From positions 1 through 64,000 of the IMG/VR virus record IMGVR_UViG_3300029959_000704: a stretch of DNA of 64,000 nucleotides. One strand, written 5' to 3'. Below are positions 42,185 to 53,785 of this stretch, piece after piece (within the stretch, counting starts at the first letter, position 1; every line of letters starts with the position of its first letter). The DNA comes from a virus. Its lineage: Duplodnaviria > Caudoviricetes. The translations under genes were made by a program, and so were the position numbers. The notes beneath the pieces were generated by a model. The model was not told the origin of the DNA, ran no database searches, and saw only the letters and a list, made by a program, of their open reading frames with translations.

Positions 42185-43426
42185 ATGTCGAAAAAGATTT
42201 ATGAAAGAGTCCTGGAGGACTTAATTGAGAGACGACAAAGAATTATTAATGGAGAGATAAACTGTATACCATCACCTTTTCCAAGGTTTAGGAATACTTT
42301 TGTAGGATTGGAGAGAGGTAAATACATAATTGTAACTGCATCAACTAAAGTAGGTAAAACCCAAATAGCTGATTATTTATTCTTATATAACTCACTCTTT
42401 TACGCCTATAATAACAGAGATAAACTCAAAGTTAAAATATTCTATTTTAGTCTTGAAATGTCTGCAGTAGAAAAATACAGGCAACTCATGTCACACTTGT
42501 TGTATATTATAAGTCAAGGTAAGATTCGAATAGATCCTAAGAATTTAAGATCTGTAAATGAGAATTATCCTTTACCTGAATCTATAATAGAATTACTTCA
42601 AACTGATTTATACAAATCAGTATTGGACTTTTTTGAACAACATGTTGTGATATTAGACTCTATCAGAAATCCTTATGGGATTTATAAATGGTGTAAGGAT
42701 TACGCTATACAAAATGGAGTAACTCATACTAAAAATTATGATTTCTTGGATAAACATGGGAATGTTACAAAAACTCAAGAAGTCAGAGACTATTATGAGC
42801 CTAATGACCCAAAAGAACAAGTTATTATTATGGTAGACCACTATAGACTCTTTACTCCTGAAAAAGGTAAGGATTTATATGCTACTATAGTAAACTGGTC
42901 TGCTAATTTTGCACTTGATCTTAAAAACAATTATGGATTCACCATTATTGGTATTCAGCAACAAGCTCCTTCTCAAGAATCAAATGAGAATCAAAAGCTT
43001 AATAAATTGAAGCCTACTATTGATGGATTAGGTGATTGTAAAGCAACAGCTCAAGATGTGGATTTGATATTAGGTTTATATACTCCAGCTCGCTATAATA
43101 TTAGAGAGTATGAAGGGTATGATATCACACGATTTAGAGATCACATAAGATTTCTAGAAGTAATGGGTGGTAGAGAAGGTGGTGGAGGAGATATATGTCC
43201 ATTATATTTTGATGGAGCAGTAAATTTCTTCCAGGAACTTCCATTACCTACCGACAAAGCCGCTTTGGAGCCATTCTATAATAGAGTGAGCTCATTGCGT
43301 ATTTATAGTTCCATAGAAGGAACAGTTAATTTAGTAACCGTAAAATTGAATGAAAGTATTAGTACTAGCAAAATCTGGTTTCGGAAAATCTTCCAGTCTT
43401 GGAGAAATTCCAGAATTAGGGATTAA
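42185..43426 (+). CDS. dnaB: Replicative SF4 helicase
   Basis: ASTKVGKT, FSLEMS, IMVDHY, IQQQ and DVDLILG. Confidence 0.88.
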   Translation: MSKKIYERVLEDLIERRQRIINGEINCIPSPFPRFRNTFVGLERGKYIIVTASTKVGKTQIADYLFLYNSLFYAYNNRDKLKVKIFYFSLEMSAVEKYRQLMSHLLYIISQGKIRIDPKNLRSVNENYPLPESIIELLQTDLYKSVLDFFEQHVVILDSIRNPYGIYKWCKDYAIQNGVTHTKNYDFLDKHGNVTKTQEVRDYYEPNDPKEQVIIMVDHYRLFTPEKGKDLYATIVNWSANFALDLKNNYGFTIIGIQQQAPSQESNENQKLNKLKPTIDGLGDCKATAQDVDLILGLYTPARYNIREYEGYDITRFRDHIRFLEVMGGREGGGGDICPLYFDGAVNFFQELPLPTDKAALEPFYNRVSSLRIYSSIEGTVNLVTVKLNESISTSKIWFRKIFQSWRNSRIRD

Positions 43427-43685
43427 AGGCTTAAATCCTTCTGAAACTTATTTAATTAGTTGTGTTCAAAAACCTTTACCATTTAGAGGATATTTAAATA
43501 AGTATAAGGAAACAACTTTTGAAAAGATTGCAGAAGGCAATCGAATTATTACTACTGATGCTCCAACTGTAGCAAAGATAGTAACCACATTGGCAACAAG
43601 TCCTTATAAGAATATTGTCATTGATGACTTGAACTATATTAGTCAAGATTATTATATGAAAAATGCTCTTAAAGGAGGATGGGAT
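43350..43685 (+). CDS. AAA/P-loop ATPase (Sak4-like), exon 1
   Basis: Walker A AKSGFGKS and Walker B IVIDD; ends ...LKGGWD at the splice site. Confidence 0.85.
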
Positions 43686-43748
43686 AGAGTGAGTGTCCCT
43701 GCATAGAGTAATCTATGTGAAAACAATTGGGTAAAAACGGTGAAGAGA

Positions 43749-43780
43749 TTTGCATTTATTAAAAATTATTTATATATTTG
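43749..43780 (+). promoter_or_regulatory. Intron-internal Bacteroidota promoter for the endonuclease
   Basis: TTTG (43749-43752), 20-nt spacer, TATATTTG (43773-43780), upstream of ATG 43807. Confidence 0.8.
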
Positions 43781-43806
43781 CCAACCAAATAATAAATATT
43801 TTTAAT

Positions 43807-44520
43807 ATGAGAAGTTTTATTCCTAATAAAAAAGAACATAATAGCGACTATTTTAAAATCATAGATTCTGAAACTAAAGCCTATATTTTAGGTTATTTAG
43901 TTGCAGATGGCTCTATAGAAGAATCTGTTAGAAAAGATAGGCCTAGTAAACTAATTCGTTTACGATTTGGATGTGTCACAGATGATGATGAGATATTAAA
44001 ATTAATTCAAAAAGAAATTGCTCCTAATAATAAACTAAGATATTATCAACCATCTGGAAATAGAAAACAAACAACTATTCTTCAGATATGTGATAAAGAG
44101 TTGATTAAAGACTTGAAAGAATTATATAATATTAAATCTAGAAAAACATATGATGCCACATTTGAATTTCCAAATATTCAAAAATCTTATGAAAGACATT
44201 TTATAAGAGGTTTTATAGATGGGGATGGGTCTATTGGTGATAGACATTTCAGTATGATTTGTAATTCACCTAAATTTGCAGAACAAATTAAAAATAAATT
44301 TTTAGAAATTATTCCAAATCTAAAATGGGTAATTTATAAAGAGAATAGAAAATTTACTCCGTATTGGAGTTTACACTTTAGTTTTAATAATTCTATAAAA
44401 AAAGTAATCTTTGATTATTTATATAAAGATGCTAATACATTCTTAACTAGAAAAAGAAATAAAGCTCTTAATGCCGTGCTAAACGCAGATATTAAAAAAT
44501 CTGCACAGTGTAACGCATAG
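43807..44520 (+). CDS. LAGLIDADG homing endonuclease (two motifs)
   Basis: AYILGYLVADGSI and HFIRGFIDGDGSI; start moved to ATG 43807. Confidence 0.92.
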   Translation: MRSFIPNKKEHNSDYFKIIDSETKAYILGYLVADGSIEESVRKDRPSKLIRLRFGCVTDDDEILKLIQKEIAPNNKLRYYQPSGNRKQTTILQICDKELIKDLKELYNIKSRKTYDATFEFPNIQKSYERHFIRGFIDGDGSIGDRHFSMICNSPKFAEQIKNKFLEIIPNLKWVIYKENRKFTPYWSLHFSFNNSIKKVIFDYLYKDANTFLTRKRNKALNAVLNADIKKSAQCNA

Positions 44521-44668
44521 ATACTGAACCTACTATAAAGTAGAATATAATGTATCCACGAGTATCCAACTCCATATTTTATATGGATGAAAACTTATGC
44601 TGAACTATACTAACAATGCAAGAAAGTATAGAACTTAGGGATAAAAAACCCTAAGGATAACAAAATTG

Positions 44669-45043
44669 ACCCCAAAACAAATAGGTTACCATATGGGTTT
44701 AATCTTTGAAGCAATTGATAAGATCCCTGATACCAAAAATATCATTGTATTTGCTCATTATGAGGAATATAAGGATAAAAATGGAGATAGTATCTCTTAT
44801 AGGTATAAATCAACTGGTAACATGGTTGATACTTATATAACTCCGGAAGGTAAATTTGAGATCGTTTTATTTGGTCGTACCAGATTTGATGAAACTCTTA
44901 AAAAATCCATTCGAGAATTTGTTACCAATGATGATGGACAGTATCCAGCAAAATCACCTTTTGGAATGTTTCCAGATCTGTATATACCTAATGACTTAGG
45001 TGTAGTTGCAGAACTTGGAGAGATTTATAATAAAGGACAATAA
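44669..45043 (+). CDS. AAA/P-loop ATPase, exon 2
   Basis: TPKQIG...VFAH...TPEGKFEIVLFG...YPAKSPFG; the spliced product is 236 aa. Confidence 0.85.
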   Translation, partial: TPKQIGYHMGLIFEAIDKIPDTKNIIVFAHYEEYKDKNGDSISYRYKSTGNMVDTYITPEGKFEIVLFGRTRFDETLKKSIREFVTNDDGQYPAKSPFGMFPDLYIPNDLGVVAELGEIYNKGQ

Positions 45044-46441: not shown

Positions 46442-47449
46442 ATGATTGCAGGAGGCTCTCCCACAGTAGAGTCCTTGAGCAATATTTTATCACAAACTAC
46501 TGAAGTAGAACTACTATATTATTATTTAGGTATTTCAAAATTACCCATATTGATTAATAGTCCTCTTAGACCTGATACCAAACCATCTTTTGGATTTACT
46601 AGTCCTGATGGACTGAAGGTTTATTACAGAGATTTTGCCACAGGAGAATCTGGAGGACTATTTAATCTATTTATGGAATTATGGAAACTATCTTTTAAAG
46701 AAGTACTAATTAAAATTGCTCAGGATTTACCAAATATAGTAGCATCAACTAAATCAATCCATGTATCTGAATATGATAAAAATAGGAAATCCTTCAATCA
46801 TCGAAGTGACAGTACCCTTAAATTCAAAATAAGAGATTGGAAATCACATGATTTAGAGTATTGGGAAGGTTATGGAATATCCAAACCTTGGTTAGAATTT
46901 GGGAATGTCTATCCTATATCACATATATTTGTTTATAAAGAGGGTCAAGAATATATCTTACCAGCTGATAAGTATGCATATGTTTATATAGAACATAAAG
47001 ATAACCAACCTTCTTTCAAAATTTATCAGCCATTTAGTCAAATATGTAAATGGCGGAGTCAACATGATCACTCAGTGTGGGATTTATGGGCTCAATTACC
47101 TTTAACAGGAGATAATTTAATTATTACAAGTTCAAGAAAAGATGCTCTTTGTGTCTGGGAAAACACATTAATACCTTCTTGTAGCTTGCAAGCAGAATCT
47201 TATCTTCCTAAAGAACAGGTAATTTCAGAACTTAAAAAAAGATTTAAAAATCTTTATATCTTATATGATAATGATTATGATAAATTGAAAAATTATGGCC
47301 GAATTTATGGCCAAAAAATAGCAGATGCATTTGGATTAATACAGATTGAAATTCCTGAAGGGATGTCATCTAAAGATCCATCTGATCTAGCAAAAAACCA
47401 CGGTAGATTGGCCGTTAAAGAAACAATATTTAATTTAATAAAACATTAA
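46442..47449 (+). CDS. DNA primase (TOPRIM)
   Basis: SPLRPD..PSF, TSSRKDA, ILYDNDYD and KDPSD. Confidence 0.85.
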   Translation: MIAGGSPTVESLSNILSQTTEVELLYYYLGISKLPILINSPLRPDTKPSFGFTSPDGLKVYYRDFATGESGGLFNLFMELWKLSFKEVLIKIAQDLPNIVASTKSIHVSEYDKNRKSFNHRSDSTLKFKIRDWKSHDLEYWEGYGISKPWLEFGNVYPISHIFVYKEGQEYILPADKYAYVYIEHKDNQPSFKIYQPFSQICKWRSQHDHSVWDLWAQLPLTGDNLIITSSRKDALCVWENTLIPSCSLQAESYLPKEQVISELKKRFKNLYILYDNDYDKLKNYGRIYGQKIADAFGLIQIEIPEGMSSKDPSDLAKNHGRLAVKETIFNLIKH

Positions 47450-47453
47450 AATT

Positions 47454-48092
47454 ATGTCACAAATTCAAAGAAGTGTAGAAGTTTATGTATCATCAAGCAG
47501 AGCCCGTAAAGTAATTACAAGTAACGCAACAACATGGGGACAACTTCGTAATGATATCCTTGCAGCAACAAATCTTCCATCATCAGATCTTTCATCAGAT
47601 AACAGTAAGATTTTTGAAGGTAATCAAAGAGTAGAGCTTGTATCAGATGAGACTCAACTTCCTACAAACATTCGTCTTGAGGACGGTACTACAACTAATA
47701 ACCTTCTGATTGTTATTACTCCTAAAGCTAAAGTAAAATCAGGTGCAGTTCGCCCCCGTACAGAAATTTATGCTGAGCTGAACCAGCTCTTCACTGCTTA
47801 TGGTGAGACTGCTAGAAATTTTTTTTCCGGATACACAAGAATCTCAAGTGAAGATCTTGAGAGGTCAATAGTCGCTTTTAAAGCCAGACTGCGTCCTGCA
47901 CAACAAGTTCAGCCAGTTCAAGCAGTTGCTATCACAGCATCTAGTATTATGATGATTAAGACTGCTTTTAATTTGTTAGCTCAAGCTACAGAACTGATTA
48001 AAGGTTCAGGACTTACATCAGATATCGTTGATATAAAAGTGGATACTGATGTAGCCAGACTTGAAGCTATTGCTCAATCACTAAACCGATAA
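47454..48092 (+). CDS. Putative ubiquitin-like (beta-grasp) protein with C-terminal extension
   Basis: The N-terminal ~97 aa has a strand-strand-helix-strand pattern ending KAKVKSG, followed by a helical extension. It is the first gene before E2, JAB and E1. Confidence 0.6.
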   Translation: MSQIQRSVEVYVSSSRARKVITSNATTWGQLRNDILAATNLPSSDLSSDNSKIFEGNQRVELVSDETQLPTNIRLEDGTTTNNLLIVITPKAKVKSGAVRPRTEIYAELNQLFTAYGETARNFFSGYTRISSEDLERSIVAFKARLRPAQQVQPVQAVAITASSIMMIKTAFNLLAQATELIKGSGLTSDIVDIKVDTDVARLEAIAQSLNR

Positions 48093-48098
48093 AAAATT

Positions 48099-49337
48099 AT
48101 GTCAGGTATTGATACACAAAACAATATCGAAAATACAGTAACCAAAGGTAAGGGGGATAATACTCCCTTACCTTCTCTTACTGCAAAAGAGATAATAACA
48201 AAAGTATTTACAGATTATTATGGAGAAGATCGAATAGATGTAAGATCTTATATAGGTAGAGAAAGACAAATTATAGTATTAATTCATTTTCCACAAATTA
48301 CTATATCCAATTCATATAAGAAATCTCATATTATAAAAGATTTATATGTAAAATATGTATTTTTAGAAGATGGGTCTTTACTAGATGGTCCTCTCTACGC
48401 AAGAAGTACTTTTTCTTCTGCAGAATTTCTATCAAATTATGAACATTCTCATGTATCTTTAAATCCAAGAGATCATATAATGTTAAATGGAACTTCTACA
48501 GGAATACAAAATGCATCAATAAGATTTTCTGGAGTTTGCTTAGGATCCGGTCCTATTAATAATACTATTTCGAACCTTCGTCATATGTTTGATTATGAGG
48601 GAGTACGAATTGATTTCAAATCTTCAATATATAAAATTAATTTATTAACCTTATGTATTGAGACAGATAGGAATGTAAGGTGGGAATCTGTAGAAGGTGG
48701 GCCATATAGAAGATTTGCTAATATAGCTTTTAATCAAAGCTCTTCATCTTCTAATATTCCCAGAACTAATACATCATTGAGTTCTTCAGGACTTCTTCAA
48801 ATAGCTCACGCTGATTCAAACAGAAATCTTTCCTTTATAAGAACATATTCTCTTCATAAATTAATCAAGTATATTCTAACAGAGATATTTAAAAAAGATG
48901 GGGTTACTTTCACATCTTGTTTATTTAAAAATGATAGATATTTTATGCAACCTACTTTTGATATGAATTTGTTAGAAGCAATTATTATCAAAACTCTTAC
49001 AGATATTGGGGATTCTATTCTTACAAATAGTTTATTAGGAACATTAGTTTCTGATGATGATGCATCAACTCCACCAACATTTGTAGAATTGTCAAGTACA
49101 TTAAATAGATTTAGTGTAGTTCCTGCAGGATCATTTAATTCAATTATGACATATGAAACTAGTGCTGTCTTTAAGAAAAAGAAGATAGTTTGCACAATAT
49201 ATCCTGTAAATGGCAATGTAAGTACTTCTACAACTGCACGACCAAGATTGCAGTTAGATCAATTGAGAGTTAGGCCTAATTTTTTAACATATATTAACGC
49301 CGTGGCTCCTCATTTTTATACATCAACTAACTTATAA
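48099..49337 (+). CDS. Prokaryotic E2-like (UBC-fold) protein
   Basis: HSHV (116-119) followed by GVCLG (Cys147), resembling the HPxV...CxG signature of E2 enzymes; WES..G.PY further on. Confidence 0.65.
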   Translation: MSGIDTQNNIENTVTKGKGDNTPLPSLTAKEIITKVFTDYYGEDRIDVRSYIGRERQIIVLIHFPQITISNSYKKSHIIKDLYVKYVFLEDGSLLDGPLYARSTFSSAEFLSNYEHSHVSLNPRDHIMLNGTSTGIQNASIRFSGVCLGSGPINNTISNLRHMFDYEGVRIDFKSSIYKINLLTLCIETDRNVRWESVEGGPYRRFANIAFNQSSSSSNIPRTNTSLSSSGLLQIAHADSNRNLSFIRTYSLHKLIKYILTEIFKKDGVTFTSCLFKNDRYFMQPTFDMNLLEAIIIKTLTDIGDSILTNSLLGTLVSDDDASTPPTFVELSSTLNRFSVVPAGSFNSIMTYETSAVFKKKKIVCTIYPVNGNVSTSTTARPRLQLDQLRVRPNFLTYINAVAPHFYTSTNL

Positions 49338-49343
49338 ATTAAT

Positions 49344-50660
49344 ATGGGACGACCTAAAAAAAATTATATAGCATCTATGGTTACTATACAAAATACTACT
49401 GAACCAAAAGTAGTTCCCGAAACACCCGCAGTAGAAGCTAAACCTATAGCTCCTCCAAGACCAGTTATTAAACCAATTGCTGGAGATTTTCAATTAAAGA
49501 TTTCTACTGCAGCTTTACAAAAAATTGAATATCTATGTGATGCCTTTCCAACAGTAGAATGGAGTGGCACATTATATTATAAAGTCATTGGAGATATCAA
49601 TGATGAAAATTTCTCAGTAGAAGTAGTGGACTTATTCCTACAGGACATAGGTACAGCTACATATACAGAGTATGAATTCAGTGAAGAATATGCAGGCTTT
49701 ATGGCTGCTCATCCTGAATTACGTGGAAATGACATTTATGAAGGACATATTCATAGCCATAATAATATGGCAACTTTCTTCAGTGGAACTGATGACGGAG
49801 AATTAATTGATTCTGCCGTTTTAAGAAAGAATATCCTTTCATTAATAGTAAACAATGCTGGTGTTTATACAGCAGCATTAGGAACACTTGCTGAAGCTGA
49901 AGTAAAGCAAATTACTTCTTATAAATATCCATTATTCTCAGGGGAAGAAATTTCTTTTCAATCAGATGTATCTAAAGTAATGCCGGTAGTCTTTAAGAAG
50001 ATGGCTGTAATTATCAAAGAGGCTCCTGAAAAGACCCTAAGAGGAATGTTTTCTTCTATAATTTCTGGAATTAAAGCCAGGAAGGAGGTTAATTCAAAAA
50101 AGAATTACTCGGGGTTTTCAAGAAATTATGGTGTTTATGGAGGCACTTCTTTCGATGATAGCTTCGATGAGGATTATCCCAAACAACCTTACACACCTCC
50201 AACAATCTTTCAACCCCATCAATACCCTTCGAATTCACAAGAAAGCCTTAAAAAAGGAGAGGCTAAAAAAAAGGAAGGAGTTAAAGAATACGAAGCACAA
50301 GCGATATTACTAATTACAAAAGCAGTAGCTTGTGCAAAATATTTTAAAGGAACTTTATCAGAGGCACTTCGTACTATACCAATTAGTACAAATGTTTCAG
50401 ATTATGAAATTGAAGCAGCAAATTCTTTTGATGATATTTTAGGATATGTTATAGAGACTACCTCTACTGTCAAAACCCAATTAACTATCCGGATTATGGC
50501 AGAAAAGATTTGTAGTGCAGCTAATGATTATTTATCAGACAATTCATTAAAATATAATCCTTATGTAAAAGTGATCCATAAATTCATACAGGATAATATG
50601 TCTATAGATGATATGCCTGATACTACCTCAGAAGCTATTAGCAACTTAAATAAACAATAA
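49344..50660 (+). CDS. JAB/MPN+ metalloprotease
   Basis: E72 (EWSG) plus H137-x-H139-x7-S147-x2-D150 (HSHNNMATFFSGTD). Confidence 0.9.
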   Translation: MGRPKKNYIASMVTIQNTTEPKVVPETPAVEAKPIAPPRPVIKPIAGDFQLKISTAALQKIEYLCDAFPTVEWSGTLYYKVIGDINDENFSVEVVDLFLQDIGTATYTEYEFSEEYAGFMAAHPELRGNDIYEGHIHSHNNMATFFSGTDDGELIDSAVLRKNILSLIVNNAGVYTAALGTLAEAEVKQITSYKYPLFSGEEISFQSDVSKVMPVVFKKMAVIIKEAPEKTLRGMFSSIISGIKARKEVNSKKNYSGFSRNYGVYGGTSFDDSFDEDYPKQPYTPPTIFQPHQYPSNSQESLKKGEAKKKEGVKEYEAQAILLITKAVACAKYFKGTLSEALRTIPISTNVSDYEIEAANSFDDILGYVIETTSTVKTQLTIRIMAEKICSAANDYLSDNSLKYNPYVKVIHKFIQDNMSIDDMPDTTSEAISNLNKQ

Positions 50661-50662
50661 TT

Positions 50663-52228
50663 ATGCAGGATAACGGATTAAACTTAGGAAGGCTTCCAGC
50701 AGATGTTCAGGAAGCCTTAAGAGAAACTTTTGGATCTGATTTTGATAATGCATCTACTTTAACAGATTTATTTAGAGAGCAAGACACTCTCAATGAACAA
50801 GGACAAGTAGTTGCACAACCAATTCCTGAACCTGTAGTTCCAGAGCCTATACAAGCAACAGAAGCTACCTTTCCTACCGGTTGGGTTGTTTCTGGACCAG
50901 ATGAACAAGATCCTAATATACATCATGGTATGGTTAATATACAAGCTAGGGAAAGGGGTGCAAATGAATTTGGGAGAGTATTAGTAAATGCAGCAGAAGA
51001 AGTAATGAATGGAAGACCTTTGCCTTGGGGCGGAGATGGAGCAGTTGGTATTCTACAAGCAGATGATTTAACTAGAGCAAGAGAAATACTTGATGAACTT
51101 ACTAGTGATACATCAAATGCAGATATGATAGGAAGTCCCTCTGACTCACTTCAAGCTGGTTTAGGTATTTTAGAACAAGTACAAGTTGTTCCTGCTGAAG
51201 TCCCTGATACTCCTTCACAATCAATACCTACAGCTCCAAGAAGAAGACGAACTCCTTCAAGGGCTACTGCAAGAGTAGTTACTCCTGTGCCATCTGAGGA
51301 AATTATAAATTTGGAATCTCCATCAGAGACTCCAGCTCAGGAATCTCCTCAACCGGTAAATACAATTAAAGCAGAAGAGGAAAATATCATACCTTTAGAA
51401 TCTTTTTATATAGCTCCTGCTACTAGTACTCCTACAGAAGAAAGTCCTATAAAAACATTAGTAGCAGATGCTTTACGAAATAGTGCTACCACTATGGAAG
51501 AAGTGTCTAAAGCTAAATTAGTATCTGAAAGTGAGTTAAGATATAGTGATGCTCCTTGGTATAATGATCTTAAAAATTATACTTATGATATTACTATAAT
51601 TGGAGCAGGAGGTATTGGATCTTGGGTGGCTTTATTGTTATCAAAATTTGGAATCATGATGAGACTTTATGATTTTGATCGTTTTGAAAAAGTAAATCAA
51701 GCCGGACAAATATTTCTTGCAAATGATGTAGGACTTCCTAAAACATTAGCAGTATCTAAATTATTAAGTGCTGTAAATGGCAACTCTCCTTTAAATACTT
51801 ATGGTAGATGGGATCCTGGAGATCCATTGTCTCCTATAACTATTGTTGCTGTTGATAATATGTCAGTAAGAAAACGAGTATTTGAAGATTGGTCTCGTAA
51901 ATATTCTACAAGAGATAAAGCTCTATTTATAGATGCTAGATTAGCTGCAGAATTGTATCAAATTTATACAGTTAAAGGTACACTATCTGGACCTAATGCA
52001 CTTGCTAGAGATAGATATCTCAAAGAATTCTTTACTGATGATCAAGCTGATGCAACTTTGTGTTCTTATAAACAGACTGCATACGTAGCAGCAATGTTAG
52101 CTGGTAGAATTATAAATAATATTGTTAACCATTTCTCAAATACCCAGCCAGATCTTTTACCAAGATTGGTACCATTCTTCATAGAATATGATGCTAATGG
52201 ATTTGAGAGAATAATACCTTATGCATAA
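50663..52228 (+). CDS. ThiF/E1-like adenylyltransferase with long low-complexity N-terminus
   Basis: GAGGIG (314-319), DFDRFEKVNQAGQ, PK, AVDN..RK, DARLAAE, and a candidate catalytic Cys in CSYKQT. Confidence 0.9.
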   Translation: MQDNGLNLGRLPADVQEALRETFGSDFDNASTLTDLFREQDTLNEQGQVVAQPIPEPVVPEPIQATEATFPTGWVVSGPDEQDPNIHHGMVNIQARERGANEFGRVLVNAAEEVMNGRPLPWGGDGAVGILQADDLTRAREILDELTSDTSNADMIGSPSDSLQAGLGILEQVQVVPAEVPDTPSQSIPTAPRRRRTPSRATARVVTPVPSEEIINLESPSETPAQESPQPVNTIKAEEENIIPLESFYIAPATSTPTEESPIKTLVADALRNSATTMEEVSKAKLVSESELRYSDAPWYNDLKNYTYDITIIGAGGIGSWVALLLSKFGIMMRLYDFDRFEKVNQAGQIFLANDVGLPKTLAVSKLLSAVNGNSPLNTYGRWDPGDPLSPITIVAVDNMSVRKRVFEDWSRKYSTRDKALFIDARLAAELYQIYTVKGTLSGPNALARDRYLKEFFTDDQADATLCSYKQTAYVAAMLAGRIINNIVNHFSNTQPDLLPRLVPFFIEYDANGFERIIPYA

Positions 52229-53247
52229 TGTTAACACAATCTTCATTATTAATCGCTACTTACTATCCTTCTGCAAGAAGTTTGCTGATATTAGATAATA
52301 CATCTATTACTGCCGCAATGGATAGAACTCTTACATTGCAATTACCTCCTATAAAAATAAATTTAGGAGATCCAAAAGGTCTTATACCTATATGTTATCC
52401 ACTTACTTTTGGCTCTATATTAGGAAGTAATCCTAATAAAGATGTATTTCTATCAATTCCTTTTGCTGTACCAGTCTCTTCACTAGTTTCAGAACCTGGA
52501 GATTTAGGATGTTTATCAAGAGGAGTAGGTAAAGGAAGAGTATTTAACAATACAAGGACTTTGCATAATATATTTAGGAATACCTTACCTCTAGGTCTAT
52601 CAACCATACTGTTAGGAGAACATGTATATTATGCAGGAAAAGGTTGCATCTTTGATAAGGATTTAAATCCTATAGTAATGAGCTATGTAACAACTTCTTT
52701 TGTAAAGAAAGTTATAGCTGGTGCTTATACAAGTTCTGCAGGAAATGTAACTGTATCTCCTTCTGGGTATATTAATACAGCTATAAGTGATATAGAAAAT
52801 ATGGCATTAGTGGAAGAGTTACATATTAAAGTAAAATCTAATTACTCAATAGCTTCTTCTGGAATTCATATAAGTCTTAAAAATTGGATTAATAAATTCC
52901 TAGGAGTAATAAATGATGAGATTTCTTCCGGTAGTAAGATTAAAGTAGAGTTGGTAAATGAATTTCCTTTTAGAGAATATGGCTTAAATATTCCATATTT
53001 AGAAAAAAGGTATATCGCTAATTATGGTCAAATAACAAAGCCTGATTTTCTCTATAAAGAGATAGTAAAAAATATTTTATCAACACATGACACAGTCTCC
53101 ATTGAAGAGCTACGAGAGGTTTTTAACCCAGACAGAGATGCAAGAATATTTGAACAGGATCTCCTTACAGATAATGCAGACACTTCCGAGTATATCTGGC
53201 GTAAAATCTCTACAAATCTTGACTCCTCCAATACAAGCTCAGTTTAG
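52228..53247 (+). CDS. Hypothetical protein coupled to the E1 gene
   Basis: 339 aa; its ATG overlaps the E1 stop. Confidence 0.75.
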   Translation: MLTQSSLLIATYYPSARSLLILDNTSITAAMDRTLTLQLPPIKINLGDPKGLIPICYPLTFGSILGSNPNKDVFLSIPFAVPVSSLVSEPGDLGCLSRGVGKGRVFNNTRTLHNIFRNTLPLGLSTILLGEHVYYAGKGCIFDKDLNPIVMSYVTTSFVKKVIAGAYTSSAGNVTVSPSGYINTAISDIENMALVEELHIKVKSNYSIASSGIHISLKNWINKFLGVINDEISSGSKIKVELVNEFPFREYGLNIPYLEKRYIANYGQITKPDFLYKEIVKNILSTHDTVSIEELREVFNPDRDARIFEQDLLTDNADTSEYIWRKISTNLDSSNTSSV

Positions 53248-53785
53248 AGCATTTGAGCTATGTCCTGTAGATATACTTAAGATTGTGATAGTTGGTCAAG
53301 ACCCCTATCCACAACCAGGATATGCTACAGGACTAGCTTTTGCTAATCCTAAAAATACACCAATAATTAGCCCTTCTTTAAAATTAATTAAAGATAGGAT
53401 TGAGAAAGATTTTACACACTTGTATTCTCAACCTACTACTTTTGATATAACTTTAGAGTCTTGGGCTAGTCAAGGTGTATTACTTTTAAATAGTGCCTTA
53501 ACTGTTTTAAAAAATCAACCTGGTAGCCATTCAGATATATGGAATCCATTCATTTCTACCTTATTAACTAGACTTAGTAATGAGGGAGGGCTGATATTCC
53601 TTTTATTTGGAGCTACTGCAAGTAATATGAAATGTTTTTTAAATCCAAAAAATAATCATATATTTGCATATAAACATCCAGCCTATTATGCTAGAATCGG
53701 ACAAGAACTTGAATGTGACGGTTTTATAAAAGCTAAAGCTCTCTTGCAAGAGAGAGGGCAGGATATACATTTTTTAAACACCTAG
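53087..53785 (+). CDS. ung: Uracil-DNA glycosylase, family 1
   Basis: GQDPYP, GLAF, GVLLLNSALT and HPA. The start may be ATG 53138. Confidence 0.92.
   Translation: MTQSPLKSYERFLTQTEMQEYLNRISLQIMQTLPSISGVKSLQILTPPIQAQFRAFELCPVDILKIVIVGQDPYPQPGYATGLAFANPKNTPIISPSLKLIKDRIEKDFTHLYSQPTTFDITLESWASQGVLLLNSALTVLKNQPGSHSDIWNPFISTLLTRLSNEGGLIFLLFGATASNMKCFLNPKNNHIFAYKHPAYYARIGQELECDGFIKAKALLQERGQDIHFLNT

Follow-up and report, generated by a model that had tools for sequence, protein, structure and literature searches.

A strongly conserved phage-encoded module, comprising a ubiquitin-like (Ubl) protein, a JAB protease and an E1-like enzyme together with a probable E2 and a fifth partner, was found in IMGVR_UViG_3300029959_000704, an IMG/VR virus record of 81 kb (CheckV completeness of 78%). 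The window analysed here consists of positions 1 to 64,000 of that record. The five open reading frames (ORF1 to ORF5) occupy positions 47454-53247 on the plus strand, within a module of replication genes that resembles its counterpart in crAss-like phages from the family Steigviridae. We lean towards the view that they encode a working phage-borne cascade of Ubl activation and transfer by thioester chemistry.

An initial annotation of this DNA had described five co-oriented genes, with gaps of 6 nt or less, between the genes for a primase and a uracil-DNA glycosylase (UDG), and had quoted catalytic motifs in four of them. The coordinates and spacings agreed with that description and every quoted motif was present, namely KSG at residues 95-97 of ORF1, HSHV at residues 116-119 and Cys147 in ORF2, E72, H137-S-H139, S147 and D150 in ORF3, and G314-A-G-G-I-G319 and Cys467 in ORF4. 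These motifs do not represent chance occurrences, since they were invariant in 75-80 homologues that had only 21-38% overall identity.

The E1-like enzyme and the JAB protease

ORF4 (50663-52228, 521 aa) encodes an E1-like adenylating enzyme. Its adenylation domain corresponds to residues 285-521 (51515-52228), and residues 309-438 matched the Pfam ThiF family (PF00899) with an E-value of 1.2e-11 and a score of 44.6 bits, above the cut-off of 28.1, which places the protein in this superfamily. When the ORF4 family profile was compared with the PDB, the matches were MccB (5e-13), UBA5 (8e-13), PaaA (6e-11) and TcdA (1e-8), with further matches to UBA6, ThiF, Uba1, Cap2, MoeB and BubCD; the PADLOC E1-E2 models were matched with E-values down to 5e-7. 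The invariant residues were R293, the GxGGxG motif (314-319), D337, D398 and R403 of the DN...R motif, and Cys467. R293, located 21 residues before the glycine motif, occupies what we take to be the Arg-finger position of MoeB-type E1s. Cys467 (52061-52063), in the sequence CSYKQT, was invariant in all 80 homologues and lies 69 residues after D398, presumably close to the spacing in UBA5. The cysteine given for UBA5 in published work is C250.

Cap2-like E2-E1 fusions from Bacteroidota genomes were collected and aligned, and then compared with ORF4 by hhalign. Their E1 domains matched with a probability of 98.6% across 224 columns, in which Cys467 was paired with the conserved crossover-loop cysteine, and for the Bub E1 domains the value was 97.9%. 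On this alignment, Cys467 is the predicted crossover-loop cysteine of a thioester-forming E1. Both the Pfam score and the position of Cys467 were therefore consistent with the earlier assignment of ORF4 as an E1 that has a GxGxxG motif and a candidate catalytic cysteine.

The best NCBIfam matches of ORF4 were ThiF models, the top match scoring 48.1 bits against a cut-off of 159 and the rest scoring worse. A single ThiF stretch was present (309-438), the E1s of the family were 259-419 aa in length, and no rhodanese domain was found on ORF4. Residues 1 to approximately 285 (50663-51515) form a low-complexity N-terminal extension that is rich in Pro, Glu, Thr and Ser and is unusually long; in the relatives this extension was 20-160 aa and its sequence was not conserved.

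The product of ORF3 (49344-50660, 438 aa) is a JAB/MPN+ metalloprotease with its domain at approximately residues 50-185 (49491-49898), followed by a helical C-terminal region. E72, H137, H139, S147 and D150 make up the JAMM motif E...HxH-x7-S-xx-D, so that the zinc site is complete. No substitution of these residues was seen in 78 homologues; each was present in 75-77 of them and the remainder were alignment gaps. The PADLOC JAB model matched ORF3 with an E-value of 1.8e-4, the match to Pfam Prok-JAB (17 bits) was under the cut-off of 25, and the family profile identified Pyrococcus JAMM1, a SAMP-specific protease (PDB 5lda, 2e-3). The intact zinc site that had been read from the sequence was upheld by these results.

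The predicted ubiquitin-like modifier precursor

According to its structural model, ORF1 (47454-48092, 212 aa) is a beta-grasp Ubl that is produced with about 115 additional aa at its C-terminal end, since the modelled domain ends at an invariant Ser96-Gly97 pair and helices then continue. Searches of ORF1 against Pfam, PHROG, PADLOC, NCBIfam and PDB sequences gave nothing usable. In the AlphaFold2 (AF2) model, which was built from 50 sequences and had a mean predicted local distance difference test (pLDDT) score of 77, residues 1-90 had the strand and helix order b-b-a-b-b-b of the beta-grasp fold, the domain as a whole extending over residues 1-97 (47454-47744). A low-confidence tail at residues 93-96 was followed by confident helices at 102-146 and beyond. 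Residues 1-93 were modelled as a ubiquitin-like beta-grasp. All 50 of the top matches in a structural comparison of the domain were Ubl-type domains, and the nearest structures were ubiquitin-type modifiers, not ThiS or MoaD; Foldseek against the PDB gave a best E-value of only about 3e-3. The beta-grasp-like character of ORF1 and the domain end at KSG, as originally proposed, were thus borne out by the model and the structural matches.

Ser96-Gly97 was present at the domain end in all 75 homologues, usually with Ala as the next residue; the residue in front of the pair is a conserved Lys or Arg. Gly97 (codon 47742-47744) is an internal residue of the low-pLDDT tail, where cleavage would take place, and the helical region of approximately 115 aa that follows has conserved residues and is well folded in the model (pLDDT of 94).

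Several other features of the ORF1 family were recorded. The helical region at residues 102-146 (pLDDT of 94) looks in the model like a helix-extended-helix motif. Some orthologues were longer, at 298-312 aa (L070:3468-4406, L072, L074 and L079), and one, most likely L070, had a Pfam match to the ribosomal L7/L12 C-terminal domain (1.1e-8). Most orthologues ended in the acidic-hydrophobic sequence SPYSDxEIDxMF, which is reminiscent of the C-terminal tails by which single-stranded DNA-binding proteins recruit proteins of replication and repair; the ORF1 of the window had no clear copy of it.

The E2-like candidate

ORF2 (48099-49337, 412 aa) is the most critical and the least certain member of the cassette; on the basis of its modelled fold, it is probably a very divergent E2-like enzyme. 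When 22 members of the family were compared with Pfam, and when PDB sequences were searched, there was no match to any known family; PHROGs, PADLOC and NCBIfam gave nothing usable, and there was no significant Foldseek match in the PDB. The AF2 model, built from 141 sequences, had pLDDT values above 90 for residues from about 28 to 210, the UBC/UEV/RWD-like part of the protein (48180-48728). It consists of a helix at 29-41, antiparallel strands at 46-52, 56-70, 76-89 and 99-106, the loop H116-S117-H118, Cys147, and helices at 153-162 and 176-194. The histidine loop (48444-48452) lies 10 residues past strand 4, and Cys147 (48537-48539) lies 6 residues before the second helix. We take this order of elements to be that of UBC enzymes, with the histidine loop and the cysteine located where E2s presumably carry HPN and the catalytic cysteine.

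Among the 50 top matches in the structural comparison, 32 were E2, UEV or RWD proteins; the top matches included non-catalytic UEV and RWD proteins, and an unrelated capping-protein fold was found at equal Z. Eight residues (S117, H118, C147, G149, G151, P152, E196 and S197) were invariant in 141 representatives, which had only 20-28% identity with the protein of the window, and in 76 of 76 loci. The cysteine was also present in a distant Flavobacterium phage homologue. The C-terminal half (215-412) was conserved within the family and poorly modelled. By hhalign, the comparisons of ORF2 with the Prok-E2_B/Cap2 and BubB profiles remained at background and did not surpass those of cross-family controls. 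A forced low-threshold alignment placed the histidine loop and the cysteine in register with PHV...IC of Cap2; it was not significant and was not counted. Of the original proposal of an E2-like protein with HSHV and Cys147, the motif and the conservation of the cysteine were confirmed and the model has what looks like a UBC-like order, but no sequence, profile or Foldseek match linked ORF2 to an E2.

The conserved fifth gene

ORF5 (52228-53247, 339 aa) is the positional orthologue of crAss001 gp75. A hidden Markov model of 25 positional orthologues matched ORF5 at 24.7 bits through the motif YYxGKGxIxDKDxNP, which was also visible in gp52 of the Flavobacterium phage Fpv20. ORF5 had no match in Pfam, PHROG, PADLOC, NCBIfam or PDB sequences. 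DUF6527 was not detected by Pfam in 26 members of the family, and hhalign of ORF5 against DUF6527/BubE was at background (P of 0.33). For ORF5 and the crAss001-type orthologue, the ESM Atlas yielded a poor model, chance-level MACPF-like matches or no model.

The end of ORF5 overlaps the UDG gene by 161 nt (53087-53247) in a different frame. Relative to orthologues of 213-267 aa, the window ORF5 carries internal insertions, and its C-terminus is longer by about 45 aa; it is this extension that accounts for the overlap. The N-terminus of UDG is real, as its PHROG match begins at residue 9.

Conservation and distribution of the cassette

A scan of IMG/VR with a single-protein query found nothing, but an alignment query gave 319 related loci, of which 80 were fetched. 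The order primase, ORF1 to ORF5, UDG was identical in 69 of these 80 loci; contig ends, split genes or a displaced UDG match were recorded among the other 11. Across the related loci, the primase was upstream of the cassette in 75/83 and UDG was downstream in 80/83. Searches with the E1 by tblastn identified crAss001, DAC15/17, the PhiCrAssBcn phages, several genomes named 'uncultured phage cr..._1' and the FpV phages of Flavobacterium psychrophilum, with 34-37% identity. There was no near-identical DNA in the phage collection, and the phage of the window is divergent, with an E1 identity of at most 38%.

The same five-gene block, flanked by primase and UDG, was present in cr128_1, crAss001 (gp79-gp75) and bajarodcaudo virus 1. 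The existing annotations of these blocks comprised only 'metalloprotease domain', 'ThiF' or 'E1 enzyme family', the other genes being hypothetical; in crAss001 only 'ThiF' and 'metalloprotease domain' were annotated. The suggestion that homologous clusters might already be annotated in other crAss-like genomes was correct in part. The gene order is kept in crAss001 and Fpv20 as well as in most of the IMG/VR loci. A full-text literature search for the crAss cassette found no published description; an earlier mention is possible, as three Aravind-lab papers were outside the search.

In Fpv20 (Fipvunavirus), the cassette corresponds to gp58, gp57, gp56 plus gp54, gp53 and gp52, beside primase and UDG. 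The JAB gene of this phage (L084 3707-5999) exists as two parts, gp56 and gp54, which are divided immediately ahead of the HSH zinc motif, and gp55, an opposite-strand endonuclease gene, is located between them. From its sequence, this arrangement looks like a mobile intron or a homing-endonuclease insertion in the catalytic-site region.

The ORF2 family comprised 3095 clusters at 50% identity in a library of 1.8 billion proteins, 990 of them with an E-value below 1e-30. Nine more copies of the cassette were found in contigs of metagenome-assembled genomes (MAGs), each of them in a phage-like replication context. A 374-kb contig of a Puia sp. MAG (L092) and a 640-kb contig of a Bacilli MAG (L091) contained complete cassettes together with replication genes of phage type; these could be integrated crAss-like prophages or assembly or binning chimeras.

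Organisation of the locus

The gaps were 4 nt between the primase gene and ORF1, 6 nt between ORF1 and ORF2, 6 nt between ORF2 and ORF3, and 2 nt between ORF3 and ORF4; the stop codon of ORF4 and the start codon of ORF5 have one base in common (TAATG, a spacing of -1). A scan of the cassette for sigma-70 promoters gave matches equal to the shuffled expectation, that is, at chance level only, and no intergenic terminator was found in the cassette. Because the gene spacing leaves no space for promoters or terminators, the five genes may be co-transcribed and translationally coupled.

The upstream primase (46442-47449, plus strand) matched PHROG 12622 (2.3e-48), had a weak match to the CHC2 zinc-finger family of Pfam and is a homologue of crAss001 gp80. 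The downstream UDG (53087-53785, plus strand) matched Pfam UDG (4.2e-12) and PHROG 12143 (2.5e-42) and is a homologue of crAss001 gp74. A resolvase-like protein, a PD-(D/E)XK exonuclease and other genes of the replication module are also neighbours of the cassette. Further upstream, three short ORFs were noted on the plus strand, at 43350-43706, 43750-44520 and 44666-45043.

Comparison with known systems

The characterised bacterial relatives of the Ubl-E1-E2-JAB set, namely the Type II cyclic-oligonucleotide-based anti-phage signalling system (CBASS), Bil and Bub, all act in phage defence. The cassette resembled Bil in having separate genes in the order Ubl-E2-JAB-E1, which is the invariant bilA-bilB-bilC-bilD order, in the cysteine-based chemistry expected of both, and in having no E3 gene. 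The E1s differ, however, in that BilD has tandem domains whereas the crAss E1 has one adenylation domain (family members being as short as 259 aa), with Cys467 in the short loop motif CSYKQT. Bil is host-encoded and defensive; the cassette is phage-encoded, forms part of a replication module and includes a fifth gene, and its ORF1 and ORF2 have no sequence-level match to any known family.

Type I Bub has the same order of five activities (BubAB, BubCD, BubE). It forms Tyr/Ser oxyesters and has no catalytic cysteines, whereas Cys467 and Cys147 of the cassette are invariant; its Ubl and E2, and its JAB and E1, are fused, whereas the cassette genes are unfused and ORF5 is unlike DUF6527. The crAss Ubl, E2-like, JAB and ORF5 profiles were at background by hhalign against their Bub counterparts. 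Two Bacteroidota loci (L131 and L135) had Type I Bub-like operons, with a JAB-E1 fusion and DUF6527, in which the Ubl and the E2 were separate ORFs; the BubAB fusion of Ubl and E2 has been described as universal for Type I Bub.

Type II CBASS shares with the cassette a clearly related E1 domain (the 98.6% match above) and a JAB partner (Cap3). It differs in its E2-E1 fusion, its CD-NTase and its effector; the genes of the cassette are separate and include neither a CD-NTase nor an effector. The CBASS substrate is the C-terminus of the cyclase, whereas the cassette has a dedicated beta-grasp Ubl, and the ORF2 profile was unrelated to Prok-E2_B by hhalign. PRTRC cassettes similarly combine an E1 and a small Ubl-type protein with a JAB-containing protein, on mobile elements (plasmids and integrative elements) and near DNA-handling genes, but the PRTRC_ThiF and PRTRC_A models scored 22.9 and 14.5 bits, against cut-offs of 144.75 and 101.8, and there was no ParB-like gene in the cassette. 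Membership in Bil, Bub, CBASS or PRTRC was therefore rejected, as the defining features of each are absent. The claim that the enzyme set is the one seen in PRTRC, CBASS and Bil/Bub held for the relationship of the E1 and for the Bil gene order, but not for the features that define the four systems; to judge from its genes, the cassette is likely to work like systems of these types while belonging to none of them.

The only described phage pairing of Ubl and JAB that was found is that of TAPI and TAPK (JAB plus NlpC/P60) in lambda and T1. There too, a phage Ubl has a conserved Gly followed by a C-terminal domain, and JAB is predicted to release it; that pair is located in the tail-assembly module and has neither E1 nor E2, in contrast to the replication-module cassette. 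The archaeal SAMP/UbaA/JAMM1 system shares with the cassette an E1 of one domain and a small beta-grasp modifier that ends in Gly, and JAMM1 is the best solved relative of ORF3. It needs no E2 and its E1 doubles in sulfur transfer, whereas the cassette keeps an E2-like gene and a fifth gene. A role in thiamine biosynthesis, as implied by GenBank labels, was rejected, since the ThiF equivalog scores were far under the cut-off and the context is one of Ubl, JAB and E2-like genes.

Proposed mechanism and alternative explanations

From the folds, the motifs, the synteny and the alignment of Cys467, we infer the following chemical steps. ORF1 would be made as a precursor in which the modelled beta-grasp Ubl is joined to the helical region of about 115 aa. 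In Type I Bub, cleavage of BubAB after a conserved Gly by the JAB activity of BubCD has been demonstrated, and by analogy ORF3 may cut after Gly97 to leave a free C-terminal glycine. ORF4, a single-domain enzyme of the ThiF/UBA5 type with conserved ATP- and Mg-binding residues and a conserved Arg finger, would adenylate Gly97; the Ubl would then move onto Cys467 as a thioester and be handed to Cys147 of ORF2. The target might be chosen by the C-terminal half of ORF2, by ORF5 or by both, and no E3-like gene is evident. The E2 of Bil has been proposed to choose targets directly, and the C-terminal half of ORF2 could pick them in the same way. ORF3 could also undo the modification.

Some observations weigh against this cascade. 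The tail of the Ubl is atypical, with a single Gly after Ser rather than Gly-Gly, and the folded, conserved region beyond Gly97 in the model (pLDDT of 94) implies that ORF1 might act uncleaved. The best solved relatives of ORF4 include MccB and PaaA, in which adenylation of a peptide C-terminus serves non-conjugation chemistry. Interaction among the four proteins is putative, and ORF5, conserved in position and in one motif, has no assigned role.

One alternative is that ORF1, ORF3 and ORF4 form a pathway built on a carrier protein, as in the ThiS/MoaD/CysO/QbsE or MccB systems, without conjugation to proteins. JAB would trim the precursor, and the E1 would adenylate its C-terminus so that a thiocarboxylate is formed or another acyl-adenylate reaction takes place; with the product, ORF2 and ORF5 would modify DNA, tRNA, a nucleotide or some small molecule. 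The E1 is single-domain like ThiF and MoeB, its best NCBIfam matches are ThiF models, its solved relatives include MccB, PaaA and the tRNA-modifying TcdA, the E2 assignment of ORF2 is weak, and a site among genes of nucleotide metabolism and replication would suit nucleic-acid modification. The CysO/Mec and QbsE/QbsD pathways are also triads of Ubl, E1 and JAB in which a C-terminal extension is trimmed. Against this, the NCBIfam ThiF and MoeB scores were far under their cut-offs (48 against 159 bits, and worse), no gene for a rhodanese, a cysteine desulfurase or a PP-loop thiolase was found in the 81 kb of the record (completeness of 78%), although the host could supply such functions, and the Ubl is nearest to ubiquitin-type modifiers and ends in Ser-Gly, not Gly-Gly. 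On these three grounds, a carrier or sulfur pathway was judged less likely than the thioester cascade. The invariant Cys467 at the position of the Cap2-like crossover-loop cysteine, and the histidine loop and cysteine of ORF2 in a UBC-like topology, also argue for thioester transfer, and we consider the carrier-protein explanation improbable. Least probable of all was that ORF2 is a non-catalytic UEV/RWD-like protein or an unrelated alpha+beta scaffold, which we hold to be quite unlikely. Only ORF1, JAB and the E1 would then be enzymatically linked, with E2-independent attachment as in SAMP/UbaA and with ORF2 and ORF5 as passengers of the replication module. E2-independent sampylation is established in archaea, and the presence of non-catalytic UEV/RWD proteins and an equal-Z capping-protein fold among the top structural matches, together with the lack of a sequence-profile link to any E2 family, is in keeping with such a role. 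However, the eight invariant residues form an active-site-like pattern, the cysteine is kept in the distant Flavobacterium phage homologue, and the ORF2 gene was never parted from the other four.

The cassette might instead be a counter-defence device that removes host modifications through JAB, titrates host enzymes with a decoy Ubl or tags a host defence protein and thereby inactivates it. The defensive function of the characterised bacterial relatives is in line with this explanation, as is the clear relationship of the crAss E1 to the Cap2-like and Bub E1 domains. Bacteroidota do carry such systems, Cap2-like E2-E1 fusions being found in 5/401 and DUF6527/Bub operons in 24/401 of the genomes sampled. 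Host Ubl defence is nevertheless sparse at these frequencies (1-6% of the genomes sampled), which is a poor fit with five genes that are universally kept, and mere reversal would need JAB alone. Anti-defence genes are usually variable accessory genes, whereas the cassette is fixed in order within the replication module in 69/80 loci and reaches the Flavobacterium phages. We therefore regard counter-defence as unlikely. Because the cassette keeps a constant place among the replication genes and has been retained from crAss001 to Fpv20, we think it likelier to serve phage DNA replication or host takeover than strain-specific counter-defence. It had been suggested at the outset either that the phage tags its own or host proteins or that it counters host Ubl defence; the tagging alternative is the one favoured here. 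That the crAss-like lineage and the Flavobacterium phages run their own Ubl cascade, tagging phage replication proteins or host proteins, is a serious possibility, if one a little short of probable.

Significance

The toolkit of the cassette is the same as that of host anti-phage weapons, here conserved within the replication module in a major group of phages of the human gut. Since both crAss001 and its Bacteroides host are culturable, the cassette is open to direct testing. If the thioester cascade is real, it would represent the first case in bacteriophages of a complete Ubl-E1-E2-protease system that is encoded by the virus, and both its E2-like family and its fifth protein would be ones that current databases do not recognise. 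It would also add a cysteine-based, unfused branch to the bacterial-type cascades. If conjugation takes place, it would mean that ubiquitin-like signalling serves phages in their own replication or in takeover of the host.

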